This document shows positions 666 through 60,163 of a DNA stretch of 64,000 bases, one piece after another. This DNA comes from Alphaproteobacteria bacterium (GTDB lineage: Bacteria > Pseudomonadota > Alphaproteobacteria > CAAHEQ01 > UBA3637). Under the pieces are notes generated by a model, which saw only the letters and a list, made by a program, of their open reading frames with translations, was not told the origin of the DNA and made no database searches. The stretch spans positions 9,988 through 73,987 of the forward strand of contig JAGCKR010000064.1 of assembly GCA_017647405.1 (NCBI GenBank), written 5' to 3'. Positions within the stretch are counted from its first letter, which is position 1; each line of letters opens with the position of its first letter. The translations under genes and the position numbers were made by a program.

Positions 666-1559
666 CTATAACGTTTGTTTCAATGTTTTTGAAACGGTTC
701 TGTATGCTGTTAAGAAAGATAACAAAGCCGTTAACAAAGGAATGCTGAGTAAAATGAGCCATTGAGCTGGATTTAGTGTGCTTTCAAGAACAAAACTAGA
801 GCTCATTTGGCGCAAGAAATAATCAAATAAAACCATAATTGGAATGGCAAGTAAAAAACCGATAAAACTGCCCAAAAGTGTTAATTTAAAACTGCGCATG
901 GCAAATTGAATGGTGATATAAAAATCACTGGCTCCCATCATGTGAATCAGTTCAATAACCTTTTGATGAACGGACATGCTTGATTTTGTTACATAAATAA
1001 CTGATAGGGCCGTTGTAATTAAAATTAATAACAAAATAAAGGCAATCAGATGAACCATATTTTCAAAGAAGGCAACAAGATCGGAAAGCGCGGCGCGATG
1101 ACTATCTAACTGCGCTTCAGGAACTTGATCAAACAAGTCTGCTTTTAATCTTCTGATGTTTGGGAAATTGTTTGGATCGGCATTCACATCAATAATTTTA
1201 GGTAATGGCAATTCATTAATTGTGTCGCTTTGACCCAACCATGGCTCCATTAATGTTGCCATTTGTTCATCAGATAAAAGAGTGGCACCGGTAATACCTT
1301 CGCTTGAACGTAAAAGAGTGAGCGTCATTTCAATATCTTTATTGATTTGTTCTTCTCTACTTTCACCCTTTTCCGTGTGTGTTGGAATTTGAACGGTTAA
1401 TGTTCCAGAAATATTACTTGTCCATGATTGAACAGAGGAATAAACAACAATGGCAATAGCCAAAATAAGCGTGGCGATAAACACCATAAACATACTAAGC
1501 CATGGAATGAAAAATTTTGATGAATCGGATGAAAATGGAATGTCTGTTCTTTTTTTCAT
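666..1559 (-). CDS. ftsX: Cell division ABC transporter permease FtsX
   Basis: 297 aa, directly downstream of ftsE. One N-terminal TM, a large periplasmic loop and three C-terminal TMs, which is the FtsX topology. Confidence 0.8.
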   Translation of the reverse strand: MKKRTDIPFSSDSSKFFIPWLSMFMVFIATLILAIAIVVYSSVQSWTSNISGTLTVQIPTHTEKGESREEQINKDIEMTLTLLRSSEGITGATLLSDEQMATLMEPWLGQSDTINELPLPKIIDVNADPNNFPNIRRLKADLFDQVPEAQLDSHRAALSDLVAFFENMVHLIAFILLLILITTALSVIYVTKSSMSVHQKVIELIHMMGASDFYITIQFAMRSFKLTLLGSFIGFLLAIPIMVLFDYFLRQMSSSFVLESTLNPAQWLILLSIPLLTALLSFLTAYRTVSKTLKQTL

Positions 1560-1574
1560 AATTATATCCCTTGC

Positions 1575-2285
1575 TTATCCTTTATTTGATGAGTTTGATT
1601 TTTCAACCGCTTCAATTCTTCCGTGAGATAGGTGCAAGCGAGGGAAGCCGAAGTGTTTAATCAGATTGTGGTTGTGCGTGGCAATAACGGTAGTTGTGCC
1701 AAGTTTGTTGAGTTCTAAAAATAAATAAATTAATCTTTTTGCCATGGCGTCATCAACATTTCCAGTTGGTTCATCAGCGAGTAAAAGGCGTGGTCGATTA
1801 ATAACTGCGCGTGCAATGGCTACACGTTGTTTTTCGCCACCAGATAATTCGTGCGGATATTTATTAAGTTGTTTTTCAAGACCAACCCAGGCAAGTAATT
1901 CGCGAACGTGTTTTTTTATATCTTGTTCTTTTGTCCCAGAAATTCGCAAAGGAAGGGCAACGTTATCAAACGCATTTAAATGATCAAGCAAACGATAATC
2001 TTGGAAAACAACGCCGATTTGTCGTCTGATTTGAGCTTTGGCTTCCCTTGAAAGTGTGTCTAATGCATAGCCAAAAAGTCTGATACGCCCCTTTGTCGGT
2101 ATGTTATTTAAATAGAGCAAACTAAGAAGAGATGTTTTTCCGGCACCGCTTTCACCTGTCATAAAATAAAATGATCCCGGTTGTAAAGTTAGTTGAATAT
2201 CTTTTAAAACCTCAGGTCCTGTCGGATATTTAAAGGAAACGCCGTTGAATTCAGCAATTGGAGTTGATAATTTATTTGTCACCAC
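1575..2285 (-). CDS. ftsE: Cell division ATP-binding protein FtsE
   Basis: Walker A GESGAGKTS, ABC signature LSGGEKQRVAIARA and Walker B LLLADEPTG. Conserved ftsE-ftsX gene order. Confidence 0.9.
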   Translation of the reverse strand: MVTNKLSTPIAEFNGVSFKYPTGPEVLKDIQLTLQPGSFYFMTGESGAGKTSLLSLLYLNNIPTKGRIRLFGYALDTLSREAKAQIRRQIGVVFQDYRLLDHLNAFDNVALPLRISGTKEQDIKKHVRELLAWVGLEKQLNKYPHELSGGEKQRVAIARAVINRPRLLLADEPTGNVDDAMAKRLIYLFLELNKLGTTTVIATHNHNLIKHFGFPRLHLSHGRIEAVEKSNSSNKG

Positions 2286-3513: not shown

Positions 3514-4225
3514 ATTTATTCTTTTTTTGGCTTGTTTTTTTGTTTCAACAATATCATTTTCAGCTTGCCCACAAGGAGATTCTTTCTATTCAAAAAGTGT
3601 TAAAGCCTCCATTCCATTTTATCAAAATTGTGCTTTATTGGAGAATGATGAGGAATCTCAAATCCGTTTAGCTGGTATTTTTAGAAATGGTGAAAAAAAT
3701 GCTCAAAAAAATGAAATGAAAGCGCTTCTTTTTTATCACTTAGCAGCTGATAACGGTAATGCTTTTGCGCAAACTGAATTGGCGAAAATGCTGATTGAAA
3801 TGGATTCAAATCCTGAAAAACGCGAACGTTTAGCCTCTTATTTAAGGCAAATTAAGTCCTCTTTAAATAGAGCAGGGGATTATTCGTTTAAAGGTGAAAT
3901 TTTGCATCCCTTTGTTTTGCTTTTGTTAGCATCGGAGTCGGCTGAACAAAAGTGGTATTATTCAACAACCGTAAAATATTCATCTGAAGCAGCAAAAATC
4001 ATAAAGGAATATCAGTTGTCTGAATCCAAAAAGCAAGAGTTGTTGCGAGCTGCTTCGTTGTGGAAGCAAAGAAAAATGATGGAAACGGCCAAAGAAGTGT
4101 TATCTGAATCCGAGTTTCAAACATTTGAAAAAATAATTTTTCCAAAACAGGGAAAAGCTGATCCGTTTTTAAGAAAACAGGCAATAAGTAATCTTAAAAC
4201 AAAAGTTGAAAATTATTTAAAATAA
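3503..4225 (+). CDS. Secreted Sel1-like (TPR-family) repeat protein
   Basis: Signal peptide MMNKFILFLACFFVSTISFSA. Sel1-like repeat LLFYHLAADNGNAFAQTELAKMLIE. Confidence 0.5.
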   Translation: MMNKFILFLACFFVSTISFSACPQGDSFYSKSVKASIPFYQNCALLENDEESQIRLAGIFRNGEKNAQKNEMKALLFYHLAADNGNAFAQTELAKMLIEMDSNPEKRERLASYLRQIKSSLNRAGDYSFKGEILHPFVLLLLASESAEQKWYYSTTVKYSSEAAKIIKEYQLSESKKQELLRAASLWKQRKMMETAKEVLSESEFQTFEKIIFPKQGKADPFLRKQAISNLKTKVENYLK

Positions 4226-4249
4226 GTTGTTAGTTAAGGAGTTTTAATT

Positions 4250-48528: not shown

Positions 48529-49341
48529 ATGGTTCAGGTAACACTTTTAACTGAAGAGCAAATTTGGGGCGAGAATGCGCTTGAAGTGATTAAAAAATAC
48601 GGCACAAAAGTGGCATTAAGTGATTTGGCTATTGTTTTAGGAGGGTGGCTGGGAAGTGCCGGAACAACAATTGAAGGTGATCGTTCTGGCTATATTTGGA
48701 CAGCATCCGGTTTAATTGATTTGGGTCTTGTTAGAACGATTACGCATGCGGGTGATCTTTGTTATTATTATCCAAATCGGCGCCGAGATGGTGTTCGTCC
48801 GGTATTGCTTAAAAAGGAAACGGATAAAATTAAAAACGCCAAAATTAAAAAAGTTTTGCTACCGAATGATTTGGAAGTGACGATGGCCGTTTTTGGCGAA
48901 TATCCGCAAAAATCGGTTAAGATCAAGTTAAGTGATTTACTTGAAAAAATGTATCATAATCGGGAGTTGAAAAAAACAAAAAGGTATTTTACATTTGATA
49001 CTGCTGGTTTAACGGATTATGAACATCCTTTTAAACCCAAACTCTATTTTGTTTATGAACATGAAGGTAAAAAATATATTCGGGTTGAAGGGCGGCCGGC
49101 AGACAGTGACTCGATTCTTTCGAATGGAAAGGATGTTCAAATTGGAGAACCATATTGGATTGAAGTGTTGCCGATTAAATGGTTGGTTGATGAAAAAACA
49201 GGGATTTGGATTTCGAAAAAAGCACTTATCAGTGGTATTCGATTTGGTAAAGATGATTTTTATGATGGAAAATTTGAAAAAACGGACATGCGCGCATATC
49301 TGAAAGATTATTTTGCAAAAGAGATGCTTCAAAAAGAGTGA
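48529..49341 (+). CDS. Hypothetical protein
   Basis: 270-aa ORF with a GGAGG RBS. The FGEYPQ and PIKWLV motifs recall a domain of unknown function (possibly DUF6273-like). That identification is from memory and weak. Confidence 0.5.
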   Translation: MVQVTLLTEEQIWGENALEVIKKYGTKVALSDLAIVLGGWLGSAGTTIEGDRSGYIWTASGLIDLGLVRTITHAGDLCYYYPNRRRDGVRPVLLKKETDKIKNAKIKKVLLPNDLEVTMAVFGEYPQKSVKIKLSDLLEKMYHNRELKKTKRYFTFDTAGLTDYEHPFKPKLYFVYEHEGKKYIRVEGRPADSDSILSNGKDVQIGEPYWIEVLPIKWLVDEKTGIWISKKALISGIRFGKDDFYDGKFEKTDMRAYLKDYFAKEMLQKE

Positions 49342-54081: not shown

Positions 54082-55167
54082 TTATTGCTCTTGTGCCATT
54101 GCGCCGGAAACGACTTCGGCAATATCTGTTGTAATTTTTGATTGTCTGGTTCTTCTGTAAATTTTTTGCATATCATGAAGCATATCGCTGGCATTTTTTG
54201 TTGCATTATCCATTGCCATTAAACGGGCAGCATTGTCAGCAACTTCTGTTTCAATTAAAACGCGGTTCACATATGCGGTCATATATTGAGGTAAAATGCG
54301 TTCTAAAATCCCTAAATCTCCCCCTTCATAATCATACATTTCGGGTTCTCTGGTCGGTTGTTTTAGCAAGGTGGCATCCAAAGCGCCAAACGGGGAAAAT
54401 AAATCCCCTTTACCAAAGGCCTTTAAAAAGCTTGTTTGTTTAAGCGCAATCTTTTTTTGACCTAAAACGTCTCTGGAAATATAATCGAGATCATTGGTGT
54501 CAATTAAAAATTGCCAAGGGTTTTCTTCTGAAAACATTTTACCAGGGATAAGCTGTTCAATGGTTGGACGTTGTGAAACAACGGATTTAAATTGATTGTA
54601 TATGAAAAGACAAACGTCAAATTTATCTTGATAAAAGGCCTTTGTCAGATCACTTGAAAGACGTTCGGCATCCAAATAGCTTTCATTTGAATTAAAAACT
54701 TTTTTCTTAACGGTAATAATTCTGATGTTTGGGTAAAAACGTTTTAAAATTTCAGCACCCTTTGTTCCAAAACAAAGAAGTGTTATCTCTTTATTTTCTT
54801 TTTGAAGATATTTAACAACTTCTTGCGTTTTTTGAACAACCTGAACATTTGAAGCCCCACTTAATCCATCATCTGATGTGATAACAACAAGAGTATATTT
54901 TAAATCTTTTCCATTTCCTTTTAAAAGGCGTGGTAATGGTAAAAGAGTGGGATCATTTTGCCAAATTAAATCTTCTTGGCGTTTGGTCGCACTTCTGATT
55001 AACCGACGGATAACGCGGTTCATTTCCGTCATATAAGGTGTTGTTTTCATAAAAGTAGTTTGCAGTTTTTTCAGTCTTGAAATGGCAACCACTTTCATTG
55101 AAGAGGTGACCTGATAAGTTGATTTAATCGTTTTTATCCGGTCGGATATCTTTTTTAATGAGCTCAT
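54082..55167 (-). CDS. atpG: ATP synthase F1 gamma subunit (with a ~50-aa internal insertion)
   Basis: N-terminal [21 protein letters not shown] and C-terminal [12 protein letters not shown]...[16 protein letters not shown] helices. 361 aa. Confidence 0.9.
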
Positions 55168-56960
55168 TCGTCATCGGTTCCCATTGTTGCTGATAAATCT
55201 TTAAGTACACTGCTTAATTTTTCTTTTGTTTCTTCTGTTAGGTCATTGGTTGATAGGATACTTTCAATGATTTCTTTATGCTCTTTTTCAACCGTTTTGA
55301 GAAGTTTTTCTTCAAAAGCAGAGATATTATCTAATGGAATTTTATCCAAATACCCATTTACCCCTGCAAAAATGGAAATGACTTCTTCGGCCATGGAATA
55401 AGGATGATATTGTTTTTGTTTCATGATTTCCGTTAGACGAGAACCCCTGTTAAGTAAAGCTTGTGTCGCTGGATCCAAATCCGATGCAAATTGAGAAAAG
55501 TTCATTACTTCGCGATATTGGGCTAAATCAAGTTTTAAAGAGCCGGCAACTTTTTTCATGGCTTTGCTTTGAGCAGCTGAACCTACACGGCTGACGGATA
55601 ACCCAACGTTAATGGCTGGACGAACCCCTTGTAAAAAGAGATTTGTTTCCAAAAAGATTTGTCCGTCAGTGATGGAAATAACGTTTGTTGGAATATAGGC
55701 TGAAACGTCGCCTTCTTGCGTTTCAATCACTGGTAATGCTGTGAGCGAGCCACCACCATATTCTTTACTGAGCTGGGCGGCGCGTTCCAATAAACGGGAG
55801 TGTAAGTAAAAAACGTCACCTGGATAAGCTTCGCGCCCTGTCGGACGTTTAAGTAATAAACTCATTTCGCGATAGGCAACGGCATGTTTGGAAAGGTCGT
55901 CATAAAAGACGATGGCATTCATGGAGTTATCTCTGAAATATTCCCCAATAGTACAACCAGCATAAGGAGCTAGATATTGCATGGCAGCGCTATCAGAAGC
56001 TGTTGCTGAAACAATAACTGTATATTCCATGGCTCCGTTTTCTTCTAAAATGCGCATAATATCGCGAACAGTTGATTGTTTTTGGCCGATAGCGACATAG
56101 ATACAGAATAATTTTTCAGAATCTGGTAAAACAGCATTTTTTTCTTTTTGGCTTAAAATAGTATCTAAAATAATAGCTGTTTTCCCTGTTTGACGATCGC
56201 CAATAATTAATTCGCGTTGCCCTCTGCCGATTGGAACAAGGGAGTCAATCCCTTTAATCCCAGTTTGAATCGGTTTATTAACGGAGCTTCTGGCAATAAT
56301 TCCCGGAGCGGGAGCCATCACTGGTTTGTGCGGTAAATCATTAAATCCTTCTTTCCCATCAATAGGGGCTCCCAGAGGGTTGATAACCCGACCTAATAGT
56401 TCCATGCCGACAGGAACAGTGTTCATCTGATTGGTTCTAGCAACGAAGGCACCTTCTTTAATGTTTTGTGCATCGTTAAAGATAACAATATCTACTACAT
56501 CCGGATTTAAGTTTAAGGCCATACCAGTTTGACCAGATTCAAATTCAACGCGTTCACCAGAGGCGATGGATTTTAATCCTTCAACTCTGGCAACCCCATC
56601 GGAAACGGATAGAACTTTACCAATTTCTTTGATTTCTTTTTTTTCTTCAAAGTCTGAAACGGTATCAGAAAAAACTTCGGCAATTTTTGTAACATCAACG
56701 GCTCGGGCGACACGTTTTTCGATTTCTTGTTGAAAAGAGGAAAGTTGACCCTTAACAGATGCATCGATAAGTAGGGAGTCAACATTCAATTTAAGGCCGC
56801 CAAGTAAAGATTCGTTTACTTTTACTTGCAAAATAAAATTATCCGTTTTTAAAATGTCACTTAATCTTGTTCTTAAAGTTGCAAGTTGTTTTTCAGATAA
56901 GCTGATAGCTGATTCAACTTCAACGAATTTTGTTTTATCTAAAGTGTTTGTCATAACCAT
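55164..56960 (-). CDS. atpA: ATP synthase F1 alpha subunit fused N-terminally to a delta (OSCP) C-terminal domain
   Basis: [10 protein letters not shown]-loop and a full alpha core from about aa 95. Residues ~12-85 resemble the delta C-terminal domain ([22 protein letters not shown]). A TAA stop lies immediately 5' of the ATG. Confidence 0.9.
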
Positions 56961-57094: not shown

Positions 57095-57409
57095 TTATTT
57101 GCTAATATTTTCTTTGATTTCGTTATCGATTTTCATCATGTATCCTTCCTGATATGGGTCTTTACCATTGATCACGTTTTGAGCTTCTTCGAGTCCATAT
57201 TTGTTAGCTTTTGCCCCCAATCTGGAAGAAGCATCAAAAAATAAATGTAGTTGTCTGGAAACAATATTTTTATATTGTGTTAATTGATGAGTTGTTTTGC
57301 CTGTTGTTTCAAAAGGATCCATTCCAAGGAAAAACCATGTTAGGATAAAAAATTCAAGAATGCGTATTCCAATCCAGATGAGAAATTTTTTTAATTTTTC
57401 AAAGTCCAT
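57095..57409 (-). CDS. Hypothetical small membrane protein
   Basis: 104-aa ORF with one TM (FLIWIGIRILEFFILTWFFLG). It has its own terminator. Confidence 0.4.
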   Translation of the reverse strand: MDFEKLKKFLIWIGIRILEFFILTWFFLGMDPFETTGKTTHQLTQYKNIVSRQLHLFFDASSRLGAKANKYGLEEAQNVINGKDPYQEGYMMKIDNEIKENISK

Positions 57410-57488
57410 GAGCTATTTATCCTTTCTTTTGTTAAAAAAGTGGTGCATACTTACCATTAAGTTTAAAGAAAAAAAATAAATATTGCAA

Positions 57489-58163
57489 ATGAAAAAAATA
57501 ACTGTTAATGGGCTTGATGTTATTCTTTTAAAACGCTTGAAGCAAAAAACACTTCGGTTAAGTGTTGCAAAAACTGGATCTGTTCGATTGACGATGCCTT
57601 ATTTTGTGAGCGAAAAGAAAGCTGTTTTGTTTTTAATGACGCATTTTAACTGGATTAAGGAAAAACAGAGTGCTTGTAAGGAAAAAGTTTTTAAAGATGG
57701 TGATGAAGTTTTAATACTTGGAAAAAAATATAAAATTATACATGATGAAACGCAAACCCATGGCGTTGTGATTCAACAGGATGAAATGTATGTGGGGGGA
57801 GAAAAAGAGTTTTTGCACCGTCGAATTTCAAATTTTGCCAAAAAAGAACTTTTGAAATATATTTGTGAAAAAGCACCTAAGATGGCATCGGGTTTTGATA
57901 AAAAAATTAATCGAATAACTTTGAAAGATACAACTTCCAGATGGGGGAGTTGTTCCTCAAAAGGGAATCTGAATTTTTGTTTTAAATTGGCCTTTGCTCC
58001 CCTTTTTGTGATTGACTATTTGATAGCTCATGAAGTAGCGCATTTAAAAGAAATGAATCATTCTGATGATTTTTGGCAGTGTGTGGCAAAAATGAATGTT
58101 GAGCAGGCACAGGCAGAAATTTGGTTGCGAAAAAATGGTAGAGAGCTGATGAAAATTAAATAG
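57489..58163 (+). CDS. YgjP-like metal-dependent hydrolase (DUF45/M48 superfamily)
   Basis: C-terminal VIDYLIAHEVAHLKEMNHSDDFW (HExxH...H). Confidence 0.75.
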   Translation: MKKITVNGLDVILLKRLKQKTLRLSVAKTGSVRLTMPYFVSEKKAVLFLMTHFNWIKEKQSACKEKVFKDGDEVLILGKKYKIIHDETQTHGVVIQQDEMYVGGEKEFLHRRISNFAKKELLKYICEKAPKMASGFDKKINRITLKDTTSRWGSCSSKGNLNFCFKLAFAPLFVIDYLIAHEVAHLKEMNHSDDFWQCVAKMNVEQAQAEIWLRKNGRELMKIK

Positions 58164-58237
58164 ATGGCATAAAGAGTATTTTTATGGGTATAAATTTTTT
58201 TTATATCTTGAATAGTATGGATTAGTTTGAGTGATAC

Positions 58238-58266
58238 AAAAAGAAAAGGGGCCCTAGAAGGGCCCC
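58238..58266 (-). terminator. Intrinsic terminator of the candidate sRNA
   Basis: On the minus strand, GGGGCCC-ttcta-GGGCCCC followed by TTTTCTTTTT. Confidence 0.8.
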
Positions 58267-58392
58267 TAGCGGAAAGAGGAACAATGAAAAAAGGGGGGGG
58301 ACAGGTTCTCTCTTTCCCAATGGTGTTTGGTTTCACAAAAATAGGGAGACTAAAAAATAACTCAAACACCTTGATCATCACCTCTTGATGAT
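58238..58392 (-). ncRNA. Candidate small RNA (family not recognised)
   Basis: Lies between a consensus promoter and a GC-rich intrinsic terminator. Four hairpins are readable by eye. It is a GC-rich island in an AT-rich spacer with no credible ORF. Confidence 0.5.
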
Positions 58393-58398
58393 GGTTGC

Positions 58399-58427
58399 AT
58401 TATAGCTTATTTTTAAAAAAAAGTCAA
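58399..58427 (-). promoter_or_regulatory. Near-consensus sigma70 promoter of the candidate sRNA
   Basis: On the minus strand, TTGACT (58427-58422), 17-nt spacer, TATAAT (58404-58399). Confidence 0.6.
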
Positions 58428-58803
58428 CACTTTTTTATAAATAAATTGACAAAAGAGTTAAAATAGAAAATATGCTAAAAATATCTTTTAATATCAATAT
58501 ATTATAAGGTTATTGATTTTTTGTTTTTTTGAGAAAAAGTAAAAAAAATAAAAATCAAAAAAATTTTTTTTAATAAAAATATACCTTAAAATCCTCTTAA
58601 AATGGGGTTTTAAGCGTAAAAATTAACAAATTATTAATCAGATTCGCGATATTTAAATTTAAATCTTTGTAACATGTTGAAAAATAAAAATAATTTTGAT
58701 TTTTCTGATTCTTAAAAAATCAAGAAAAAAGAGCGACAGAGGAAGTTTCGTTTTTTTTAGGAGGAGTATCGCTCTTTAATGGAAGAATAAGAAGATATGT
58801 CTT

Positions 58804-59510: not shown

Positions 59511-59525
59511 ATTCTACTTTTGTTC
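59511..59525. promoter_or_regulatory. Alphaproteobacterial-type LexA box candidate (GAAC-N7-GAAT on the lexA strand)
   Basis: The plus strand reads ATTC-tactttt-GTTC. It lies immediately downstream of the lexA -10 element. Confidence 0.5.
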
Positions 59526-59527
59526 TT

Positions 59528-59556
59528 ATGCTAAAATAAAAAAAATGCTTTGTCAA
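59528..59556 (-). promoter_or_regulatory. Putative lexA promoter
   Basis: On the minus strand, TTGACA (59556-59551), 17-nt spacer, TAGCAT (59533-59528). Confidence 0.5.
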
Positions 59557-59668: not shown

Positions 59669-60163
59669 ATGAAAAAGATGATTGAAGAAGAAATTGAAAG
59701 AGATAATATTCAGGTTTTGATGGCTCATCGGATTCAAAGTGCAATTGATGCGGGGGATTTGATTGAGCTTCAAGATTGTGCCGCTCTTTTGGATGTGAAA
59801 CGCATCTTTTTTGTTGAAATGGATGAGGAAACGGATCGAAAACTTGCCAAGCCGATTCTTGTTTATGCCGCAGAACATGGATCTGTTGATGTGGTTAAAT
59901 TTTTGCTTGAGATGGGGTGCGATATTAATGCTCAGGATACGTTTGGGAATACGGCGCTTTTATGTGCGGTTGAAAATAACAGATATGAATTGATGAAATT
60001 TTTGTTGCGTCAACCGGGCATTCACGTTGAGCTTGCCAATTTTTATGGCGAGAATATTTTTTCAATTGCGGCTCTTAATAATGATGAACAGATCATGTCG
60101 CATTTAAAAACGTTAAAGTTTCAAAAATCAGATATTGCCGAAAGTGTTTTCCAAGTTAATTAA
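59669..60163 (+). CDS. Ankyrin-repeat protein
   Basis: PILVYAAEHGSVDVVKFLLEMGCDINAQDTFGNTALLCAVENNRYELMKFLL gives at least 2-3 ANK units. Confidence 0.75.
   Translation: MKKMIEEEIERDNIQVLMAHRIQSAIDAGDLIELQDCAALLDVKRIFFVEMDEETDRKLAKPILVYAAEHGSVDVVKFLLEMGCDINAQDTFGNTALLCAVENNRYELMKFLLRQPGIHVELANFYGENIFSIAALNNDEQIMSHLKTLKFQKSDIAESVFQVN

Follow-up and report, generated by a model that had tools for sequence, protein, structure and literature searches.

A new family of four-hairpin small RNAs, predicted from conserved sequence and structure in uncultured low-GC Alphaproteobacteria

In a 64,000-nucleotide (nt) stretch of contig JAGCKR010000064.1, from an uncultured alphaproteobacterium (the whole of this 64-kilobase (kb) stretch is called the window below), we identified what is very probably a genuine, stand-alone, non-coding small RNA (sRNA) gene of ~155 nt. 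It extends from ~58392 to ~58240 on the minus strand, in the spacer between lexA and a gene for a YgjP-like M48 peptidase. The locus displays the general hallmarks of an sRNA gene, namely its own promoter and Rho-independent terminator, an intergenic position, a length within 50-300 nt, compensatory substitutions and a lack of coding capacity. Along with its homologues it constitutes a new sRNA family that is absent from Rfam, and that most resembles the cuckoo/CcsR RNAs and the sRNAs with UCCC motifs without being a member of any of these. As far as seen, the family is restricted to uncultured low-GC Alphaproteobacteria. By analogy with those RNAs we lean, with modest confidence, towards the combined view that the gene is genuine and that its product would act in trans as a base-pairing repressor of translation.

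A preliminary description of this locus had read by eye a promoter, four hairpins (H1 to H4) and a ~155-nt segment closed by an intrinsic terminator, and each of these was recovered by computation (Table 1). The promoter is the top match in the 2.3 kb scanned, the terminator scan detects H4, and the minimum free energy (MFE) fold of 58392..58238 obtained with RNAfold consists of exactly the four hairpins proposed, at -50.5 kcal/mol and with z = -3.9, none of 200 shuffled sequences folding as stably. The RNA segment starts six bases past the -10 hexamer, and its terminator has the form AGGGGCCCU-UCU-AGGGCCCCU followed by UUUCUUUUU (58267..58238). The segment also stands out, as had been noticed, as a G+C island, with a G+C fraction of 0.42-0.50 as against 0.13-0.25 in the surrounding spacer. 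Upstream lies lexA on the same strand, and the YgjP-like gene (57483..58163) is convergent. The element is assigned to the minus strand because its promoter and T-run suit only this orientation, and because several G-U pairs in the homologues would read as A-C mismatches on the opposite strand.

Table 1. Positions of the sRNA gene's elements in the window
Feature	Position	Strand	Basis or remark
TTGTCAA box	58446..58452	minus	18-19 nt upstream of the sRNA -35 hexamer
Sigma-70 promoter, TTGACT-17-TATAAT	58427..58399	minus	11/12 consensus match
H1, AUCAUCA-AGAGG-UGAUGAU	58392..58374	minus	MFE fold; 5' end of predicted transcript
H2, stem CAAGGUGUUUG / CAAACACC(A)UUG, 33-nt loop	58373..58318	minus	MFE fold
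H2 loop motif UAGUCUCCCUAU, candidate seed 1	58352..58341	minus	identical in six of six types
H3, stem GGAAAGAG(A)GAAC / GUUCCUCUUUCC, 22-nt loop	58317..58271	minus	MFE fold
H3 loop CUGU-C8-U6-CAUU, candidate seed 2	58304..58283	minus	C-run and U-run conserved
H4, intrinsic terminator hairpin	58267..58247, U-tail 58246..58238	minus	terminator scan

Relatives of the locus were collected by outward walks with relatives of YgjP and LexA, and by a single scan of metagenome contigs with the pattern GGTGTTTG-N4-14-TAGTCTCCCTAT. The homologues represent six independent sequence types, that of the window's genus and five further ones, all from uncultured low-GC Alphaproteobacteria. Type A comprises the window itself, a contig of the same species (L094), three congeneric species (L001, L002 and L004) and a more distant congener (L081); L001, L002, L004 and L081 carry the element at the same place as the window. 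In type B, LexA is ~84-85% identical to that of the window; here L098 has an identical H2 and H3 stem and an entirely different terminator, and L100-102, which share its LexA identity and pattern, were treated as a second sequence type within B. Types C (L086, sRNA at 3961..4112) and D (L088, sRNA at 4097..4248) come from bacteria with 73% and 63% identical LexA, respectively. Type E is formed by two metagenome contigs, L090 and L091, in which the RNA lies beside a divergent tRNA gene, near tsaB. The homologues score 129-137 bits in L098 and L100-102, 69 bits in L086 and 62 bits in L088; L090 and L091 reach 38-40 bits with our model R1, and L091 108 bits with model R2. The discovery of L086 and L088, by nhmmer, did not depend on the H2 motif UAGUCUCCCUAU. 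The pattern that retrieved L090 and L091 contains this motif, and its identity in these two contigs is partly a matter of ascertainment. Five matches in all were returned by the pattern scan, three of them real (L090, L091 and L094) and two due to chance (L092, 271..295, and L093, 1382..1412), the latter being rejected as homologues with only 11-12 bits under R2. These two chance matches carry CTATAGGGAGAC, the core of T7-type phage promoters, on the opposite strand.

The fetched loci have a G+C content of 31-42% and their hosts are largely gut-associated; a LexA scan of contigs representing one genome per species placed the metagenome-assembled genomes (MAGs) of the window's lineage in human-associated and sheep-rectum samples. 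A single copy of the gene is seen in the 64 kb: no paralogue was found in the window with either model, and one weak match, at 1130..1174, was discarded since it falls within coding sequence and has neither of the motifs. Likewise, no homologue was found in the viral contigs, plasmids or phages searched, and an origin from a mobile element was rejected on this ground.

Within the window's genus, the DNA from promoter to terminator is 96-98% identical, in a block that takes in ~30 nt ahead of the -35 hexamer and extends through the terminator (in comparisons with L001, L002, L004 and L081), whereas the DNA of lexA is only 81-85% identical and the intergenic flanks are largely unalignable. The differences that occur within the RNA either fall on positions predicted to be unpaired or alter both sides of one pair: the bulged A58309 of H3 is replaced by U (in every relative, including the conspecific L094), the poly-C tract of the H3 loop varies between C7, C8 and C9, and the terminator loop changes along with its closing pair (U-A to G-U, in L081). 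The sRNA is evidently under strong purifying selection. All six types retain TTGAC(A/T) and a TATAAT-like hexamer, mostly with a TGn extended -10 element, separated by a spacer of exactly 17 nt whose own sequence is unrelated between types. Further, H1 begins 6-8 nt past the -10 hexamer in all types, each homologue folded alone yields the same four hairpins (z of -4.9 to -9.5) joined by linkers of 0-8 nt, and a U-run follows H4 in every type.

Covariation was counted on two model-guided alignments, A3 and A4. In these, standard pairs occupy 96.6-97.4% of the cells, as against ~41-53% after the 3' partners have been shifted by 1-3 columns, and none of 500 column shuffles matches the observed values. 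Both sides have changed in 24 of the 39 pairs, with five of seven such pairs in H1, 10 of 12 in H3, all nine in H4 and none of 11 in H2. The search of relatives for homologues and covariation that the preliminary description had proposed as a check thus bears the gene out, with promoter, hairpins and terminator kept in six types and H1, H3 and H4 covarying. Three elements of the family stay invariant, namely the stem of H2, its loop motif UAGUCUCCCUAU and the C-run and U-run of H3; H1, H3 and H4 have had their stems rewritten. The core of the H2 stem, GGUGUUUG/CRAACAYC, is invariant in all types save for changes of G-C to G-U and of U-A to U-G, and all 56 nt of H2 are 100% identical across lineages with completely different terminators. 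The loop motif is predicted to form a mini-hairpin, UAG-UCUCC-CUA, which is present in every independent fold. The H3 stem of L090 and L091 has a wholly different sequence, yet still pairs, and the tract in the H3 loop is C7-C9 followed by U6-U9 in types A to D and ACCUCCCCCUUUUUUU in L090 and L091 (C5-9/U6-9 overall). The poly-C itself (58293..58300) is C8 in the window, C9 in L094 of the same species (around 2125..2135) and in L001, L002 and L004, and C7 in L081; this difference in length reflects either slipped-strand variation or homopolymer sequencing error. The H1 loop varies between types (AGAGG, AGAG, CAAG, UUCG, UGAGAG) and its Shine-Dalgarno (SD)-like version is not conserved, so that protection of the 5' end is most likely the sole role of H1.

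The preliminary description had argued that the segment is probably not coding, since the only open reading frame (ORF) it recognized there runs through the terminator stem and antisense into the ygjP-like gene. This ORF, of 107 amino acids (aa; 58058..58381, minus strand), is real and has the course described. It is broken in L094 and in all congeners, where UGA replaces the AGA of the window and the poly-C length differs, leaving an ORF of 24 aa; the 107-aa frame is evidently an accident of one sequence. A 53-aa plus-strand ORF (58227..58388) that had been missed is not conserved either, and no ORF is conserved among the six types, in which lengths differ and frames are shifted or interrupted even within a species. 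A small-protein or dual-function transcript is nevertheless an alternative to be weighed, wherein translation from AUG 58379 or GUG 58370 would yield a short, hydrophobic product (reading MMIKVFELFFSLPIFVKPNTIGKE in the relatives) that might be a membrane peptide akin to type I toxins, encoded beside lexA. The ORFs of the window's genus (24 aa), L098/L100-102 (31 aa) and L090/L091 (23 aa) share a frame through GGUGUUUG...AGUCUCCCUAU, the spacing between these two elements differs by 3 nt between types, and an SD-like AAGAGGUGAU precedes the ORF in the window's genus. However, the frame hits UGA after three codons in L086 and closes after nine in L088, the window has lost the stop that the conspecific L094 has, the C-terminus in type B is frameshifted and the SD-like sequence is not conserved. 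Compared with a typical type I toxin helix, the hydrophobic stretch has too little length and too much charge. Synonymous sites and the 80 nt past the stop are as conserved as the putative codons, which places the constraint at the level of the RNA. We regard a small-protein or dual-function transcript as very improbable.

The genomic neighbourhood of the RNA changes between lineages. It adjoins lexA in four genus-level groups, with a flip in orientation: sRNA and lexA lie on the same strand in the window's genus, L098 and L100-102, and are convergent in L086 and L088. The second neighbour of the sRNA varies with the lineage and is ygjP-like, rsfS or an unknown gene. No copy of the sRNA is present beside lexA or ygjP in L083-85, L087, L089 and L095-97 or in the distant L005-L008; thus, the linkage to lexA is frequent, not universal. 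These arrangements bear on whether the element might act in cis, as a 5' leader or attenuator, as an antisense RNA to the convergent YgjP-like gene or as a shared bidirectional terminator. In favour of this, tsaB of L090 follows the RNA on the same strand at a distance of 38 nt, and in the window's genus the terminator of the sRNA abuts the 3' end of the YgjP-like gene. Such a role is nonetheless highly improbable, more so than that of a peptide: the downstream neighbour and its orientation vary (a convergent ygjP-like gene, a convergent lexA, minus-strand genes in L091), all types have a strong terminator with a U-run, and there is no overlap with ygjP. The plus strand lacks a T-run after the hairpin and would be a poor terminator for ygjP, and a terminator alone would leave the conserved promoter and three further hairpins unexplained.

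Upstream of the promoter, the TTGTCAA box forms an inverted repeat with the TTGAC(A/T) of the -35 hexamer. It is kept in the window's genus, L098, L100 and L086, and was not seen in L088, L090 and L091; it may be an operator or activator site, the binding site of a regulator, or part of an UP-like element.

Comparison with known RNA families places the element outside all of them. At the gathering score, Rfam 15 reports only three tRNAs in the whole window, and ARAGORN likewise finds only three tRNAs and no transfer-messenger RNA (tmRNA). When Rfam was searched by E-value, the best match of the locus was BjrC68 (RF02353), an sRNA of Bradyrhizobiaceae, which scored 22.3 bits where the gathering score is 39 (E = 0.0034 for a search of 1 kb); the other matches up to E = 10 are below threshold and at the level of chance, and no known sRNA family was obtained for five homologous loci up to E = 1. 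The covariance-model search called for in the preliminary description accordingly gave no known family, and the sequence, which it had not recognized as 6S RNA, signal recognition particle (SRP) RNA, tmRNA or RNase P RNA, indeed matches none of these: neither Rfam nor ARAGORN reports any of them, and the fold, which lacks pairing between the 5' and 3' ends and consists of four independent hairpins, fits neither the 6S rod nor SRP domain IV. One could still suppose a highly diverged version of a known RNA that escaped the covariance models, be it 6S, SRP RNA, a piece of a two-piece tmRNA, BjrC68 or a cuckoo/AbcR-type sRNA. The very high conservation, the strong and constitutive-looking promoter and the BjrC68 match itself are compatible with such an origin, and that match does align a hairpin followed by a GGGGCCC-type terminator to model positions 1-82. 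Yet it is confined to H3 and H4 and needs a loop insertion of 31 nt, leaves H2 and the two loop motifs without a counterpart, and has no equivalent at the five homologous loci. What it rests on is a generic hairpin and the terminator. Along with the departure of the architecture from 6S and SRP RNA, and the lack of the cuckoo motif CCUCCUCCC, this renders a missed known family extremely improbable.

The preliminary description had likened the loops to those of the AbcR and CcsR/cuckoo sRNAs, and the comparison is apt as regards their C-rich, anti-SD-like character, not as regards membership. AbcR1/2 (alpha-r15), of the Rhizobiales, uses CUCCC-type anti-SD motifs and represses the translation of many mRNAs. 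The new RNA resembles it in being an alphaproteobacterial sRNA with a motif of that type, and differs in its four hairpins with an invariant H2 and in the lack of tandem genes. Neither AbcR nor any cuckoo-type family is among the Rfam matches listed for the locus (up to E = 10) or for the five homologous loci (up to E = 1). Members of the cuckoo family (RSs0680/CcsR, alpha-r14 and NfeR1, from Rhizobiales and Rhodobacterales) have two to four adjacent hairpins with linkers of at most ~10 nt, no multiloop and loops bearing CCUCCUCCC; their stems covary freely, their C-rich loops are anti-SD-like, they end in a Rho-independent terminator, and they have been proposed to occlude ribosome-binding sites (PMC4615179). 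The architecture is the same here, with four consecutive hairpins, short linkers, C-rich loops and a terminator in the window and every homologue. However, CCUCCUCCC is absent from the loops, which read AGAGG (H1), UAGUCUCCCUAU (H2), CUGU-C8-U6-CAUU (H3) and UCU (H4), and to which L090 and L091 come closest with CCUCCCCCU in H3, two mismatches away from the motif and confined to that one loop. Also unlike the cuckoo RNAs, just two of the four hairpins have C-rich loops, with motifs that differ from each other, the H2 stem is invariant, and the hosts are uncultured low-GC MAGs with a single copy in 64 kb.

Similar loops recur beyond the Alphaproteobacteria. The Rsa RNAs of Staphylococcus aureus carry a UCCC motif that is thought to pair with SD sequences (PMC2790875, PMC4132741). 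The new RNA shares with RsaE/RoxS, the hairpins of RNAIII and LhrC of Listeria a low-GC host and unpaired UCCC loops on stable hairpins (here UCUCCCU); however, those RNAs belong to another phylum and show no similarity in sequence or covariance model, and the resemblance is functional or convergent only. RepG of Helicobacter pylori uses a C/U-rich loop to bind a homopolymeric G-repeat, and regulation is tuned by the length of that repeat (PMC8295292). A C/U-rich hairpin loop (here a candidate seed) and a homopolymer of variable length (here C7-C9) are common to both, but the seed of RepG is its terminator loop and the variable repeat resides in the target mRNA, whereas in the new RNA the homopolymer is located in the penultimate hairpin of the sRNA itself; moreover, no G-repeat target was found in the window and the two RNAs are not homologous.

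We favour a trans-acting repressor because the invariant unpaired parts of the RNA are pyrimidine-rich and similar to the 16S anti-SD sequence, as in the cuckoo/CcsR RNAs, the UCCC-motif RNAs and RepG. In the mechanism that we propose, H1 would protect the 5' end, and H2 and H3, inferred to be the functional modules, would present two pyrimidine-rich apical loops (UCUCCC and C5-9 U6-9) as seeds, the H3 loop resembling the 16S anti-SD ACCUCC...UUU, most clearly in L090 and L091. These seeds may pair in trans with purine-rich ribosome-binding regions of mRNAs (GGGAGA-like, or A-rich/G-rich), and the pairing would block binding of the 30S subunit and thereby repress translation. H4 and the U-tail would terminate transcription and might also bind a chaperone. 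That the C-rich loops serve as anti-SD-like seeds had already been suggested in the preliminary description; their invariance amid rewritten surrounding stems strengthens this idea without proving it. No target emerged in the 64 kb.

Several points weigh against a base-pairing repressor, or against the strength of the case for it. No extended complement of either loop exists in the window outside the gene itself, and RNAduplex gave no clear preference for initiation regions when 60 translation-initiation regions were compared with internal coding segments (mean -11.9 vs -11.0 kcal/mol for H2 and -9.2 vs -8.2 kcal/mol for H3). The alignment used for covariation was fitted to the model, and a sequence-only alignment with MAFFT and RNAalifold recovers only H2, because the remaining stems are too diverged to be aligned by sequence; the comparison, moreover, rests on six independent sequence types. 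Finally, the complete invariance of the H2 stem exceeds what a scaffold for a seed would need, which could mean that H2 binds a protein or is a structured module for recognition. As for individual candidates, the top RNAduplex match, the gene at 48529..49341, was dismissed as a target as it has only a strong generic SD sequence, and none of the six other G6-7 runs in the window follows an A-run or lies clearly in a leader.

The invariance of H2 raises the alternative of a protein-binding or ribonucleoprotein RNA, in which the H2 module and the poly-C/poly-U loop would be recognition sites that sequester or scaffold proteins, candidates being KH-domain proteins (KhpA/B), ribosomal protein S1, Hfq or a lineage-specific protein. 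An H2 stem that is unchanged in six types in which the other three are freely rewritten, and a 56-nt H2 that is identical in two lineages with completely different terminators, are in line with this, as are the lack of an mRNA target in the window and a genus-level conservation of 96-98%, a level more like that of housekeeping RNAs than the one typical for regulatory sRNAs. On the other hand, each element is present in one copy, without the repeated binding motifs of CsrB/RsmZ-like RNAs, what is conserved and unpaired is precisely the anti-SD kind of sequence that base-pairing sRNAs use, and no candidate protein is linked to the locus, whose neighbours change between lineages. On balance we regard a protein-binding RNA as rather unlikely. 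Decidedly unlikely, to our mind, is the bolder proposal that the sRNA is more than an ordinary antisense regulator, either as a tunable anti-SD mimic or as a small ribonucleoprotein. As a mimic, the loops of H3 (ACCUCC...UUU in L090 and L091, C7-9U6-9 elsewhere) and H2 (UCUCC) would stand in for the 3' tail of 16S rRNA, vying with ribosomes for SD sequences; the poly-C, prone to slippage (C8 vs C9 within one species), would then be a phase-variable rheostat placed in the sRNA and not in its target. As a ribonucleoprotein, the invariant H2 module would be the binding site of a lineage-specific protein.

For the uncultured low-GC Alphaproteobacteria of the human and animal gut, in which almost nothing is known of RNA regulation, the locus provides a well-delimited, covariation-supported sRNA family as a possible new entry for Rfam, which lacks it. 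C-rich loops of the anti-SD-like kind, as in cuckoo/CcsR, RsaE and RepG, are thereby extended to a further lineage, where the motif is another one; this points to their repeated invention by convergence. Its most distinctive features are an H2 that is invariant where the other three hairpins are completely rewritten, and a slippage-prone poly-C in the presumed seed. The immediate impact is modest, this being one more lineage-specific sRNA family whose targets are only inferred.

Certain observations concern lexA and the other neighbours of the sRNA. The promoter of lexA, on the minus strand, consists of TTGACA (59556..59551), a 17-nt spacer and TAGCAT (59533..59528), followed by GAACAAAAGTAGAAT (59525..59511), a GAAC-N7-GAAT direct repeat resembling the alphaproteobacterial LexA box and conserved in all six lineages. 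The listed TTG start of the 250-aa lexA ORF (59556) lies inside the -35 hexamer of this promoter, and the true start is therefore evidently ATG 59487. Control of the sRNA by LexA was considered and rejected: no GAAC-N7-GAAT box was seen on reading the sRNA promoter regions, whereas it is present at the lexA promoters of all lineages. The terminator hairpin of lexA (AAAGAGCGA...UCGCUCUUU with a U-run, 58725..58777, minus strand) shows compensatory changes in the congeners, such as AAGCAGC/GCUGCUU in L001. In the AT-rich and otherwise unalignable spacer, a 30-nt block, GCGAATCTGATTAATAATTTGTTAATTTTT (58618..58647, minus strand), is nearly invariant in five congeneric species. It holds a GANTC site and a CtrA-box-like TTAA-N7-TTAA, a motif that is common by chance (17 found in the window vs 11.4 expected). 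A replication origin in this AT-rich spacer was rejected, as the window shows positive GC skew throughout and lacks a cluster of DnaA boxes.

Further away, the 598-aa ORF at 55164..56960 (minus strand) is an apparent fusion of the delta (OSCP) and alpha subunits of ATP synthase; in its 604-aa orthologues in L081 and L083, a single product bears the Pfam domains OSCP, ATP-synt_ab_N, ATP-synt_ab and ATP-synt_ab_C. Beside ygjP, the window (57095..57409, minus strand), L081 and L082 encode a 104-aa protein for which no Pfam match is on record. On the other side of lexA, and divergent from it in nearly all related loci, is a gene for a small ankyrin-repeat protein (59669..60163, plus strand), ankyrin-repeat genes being frequent in these MAGs.

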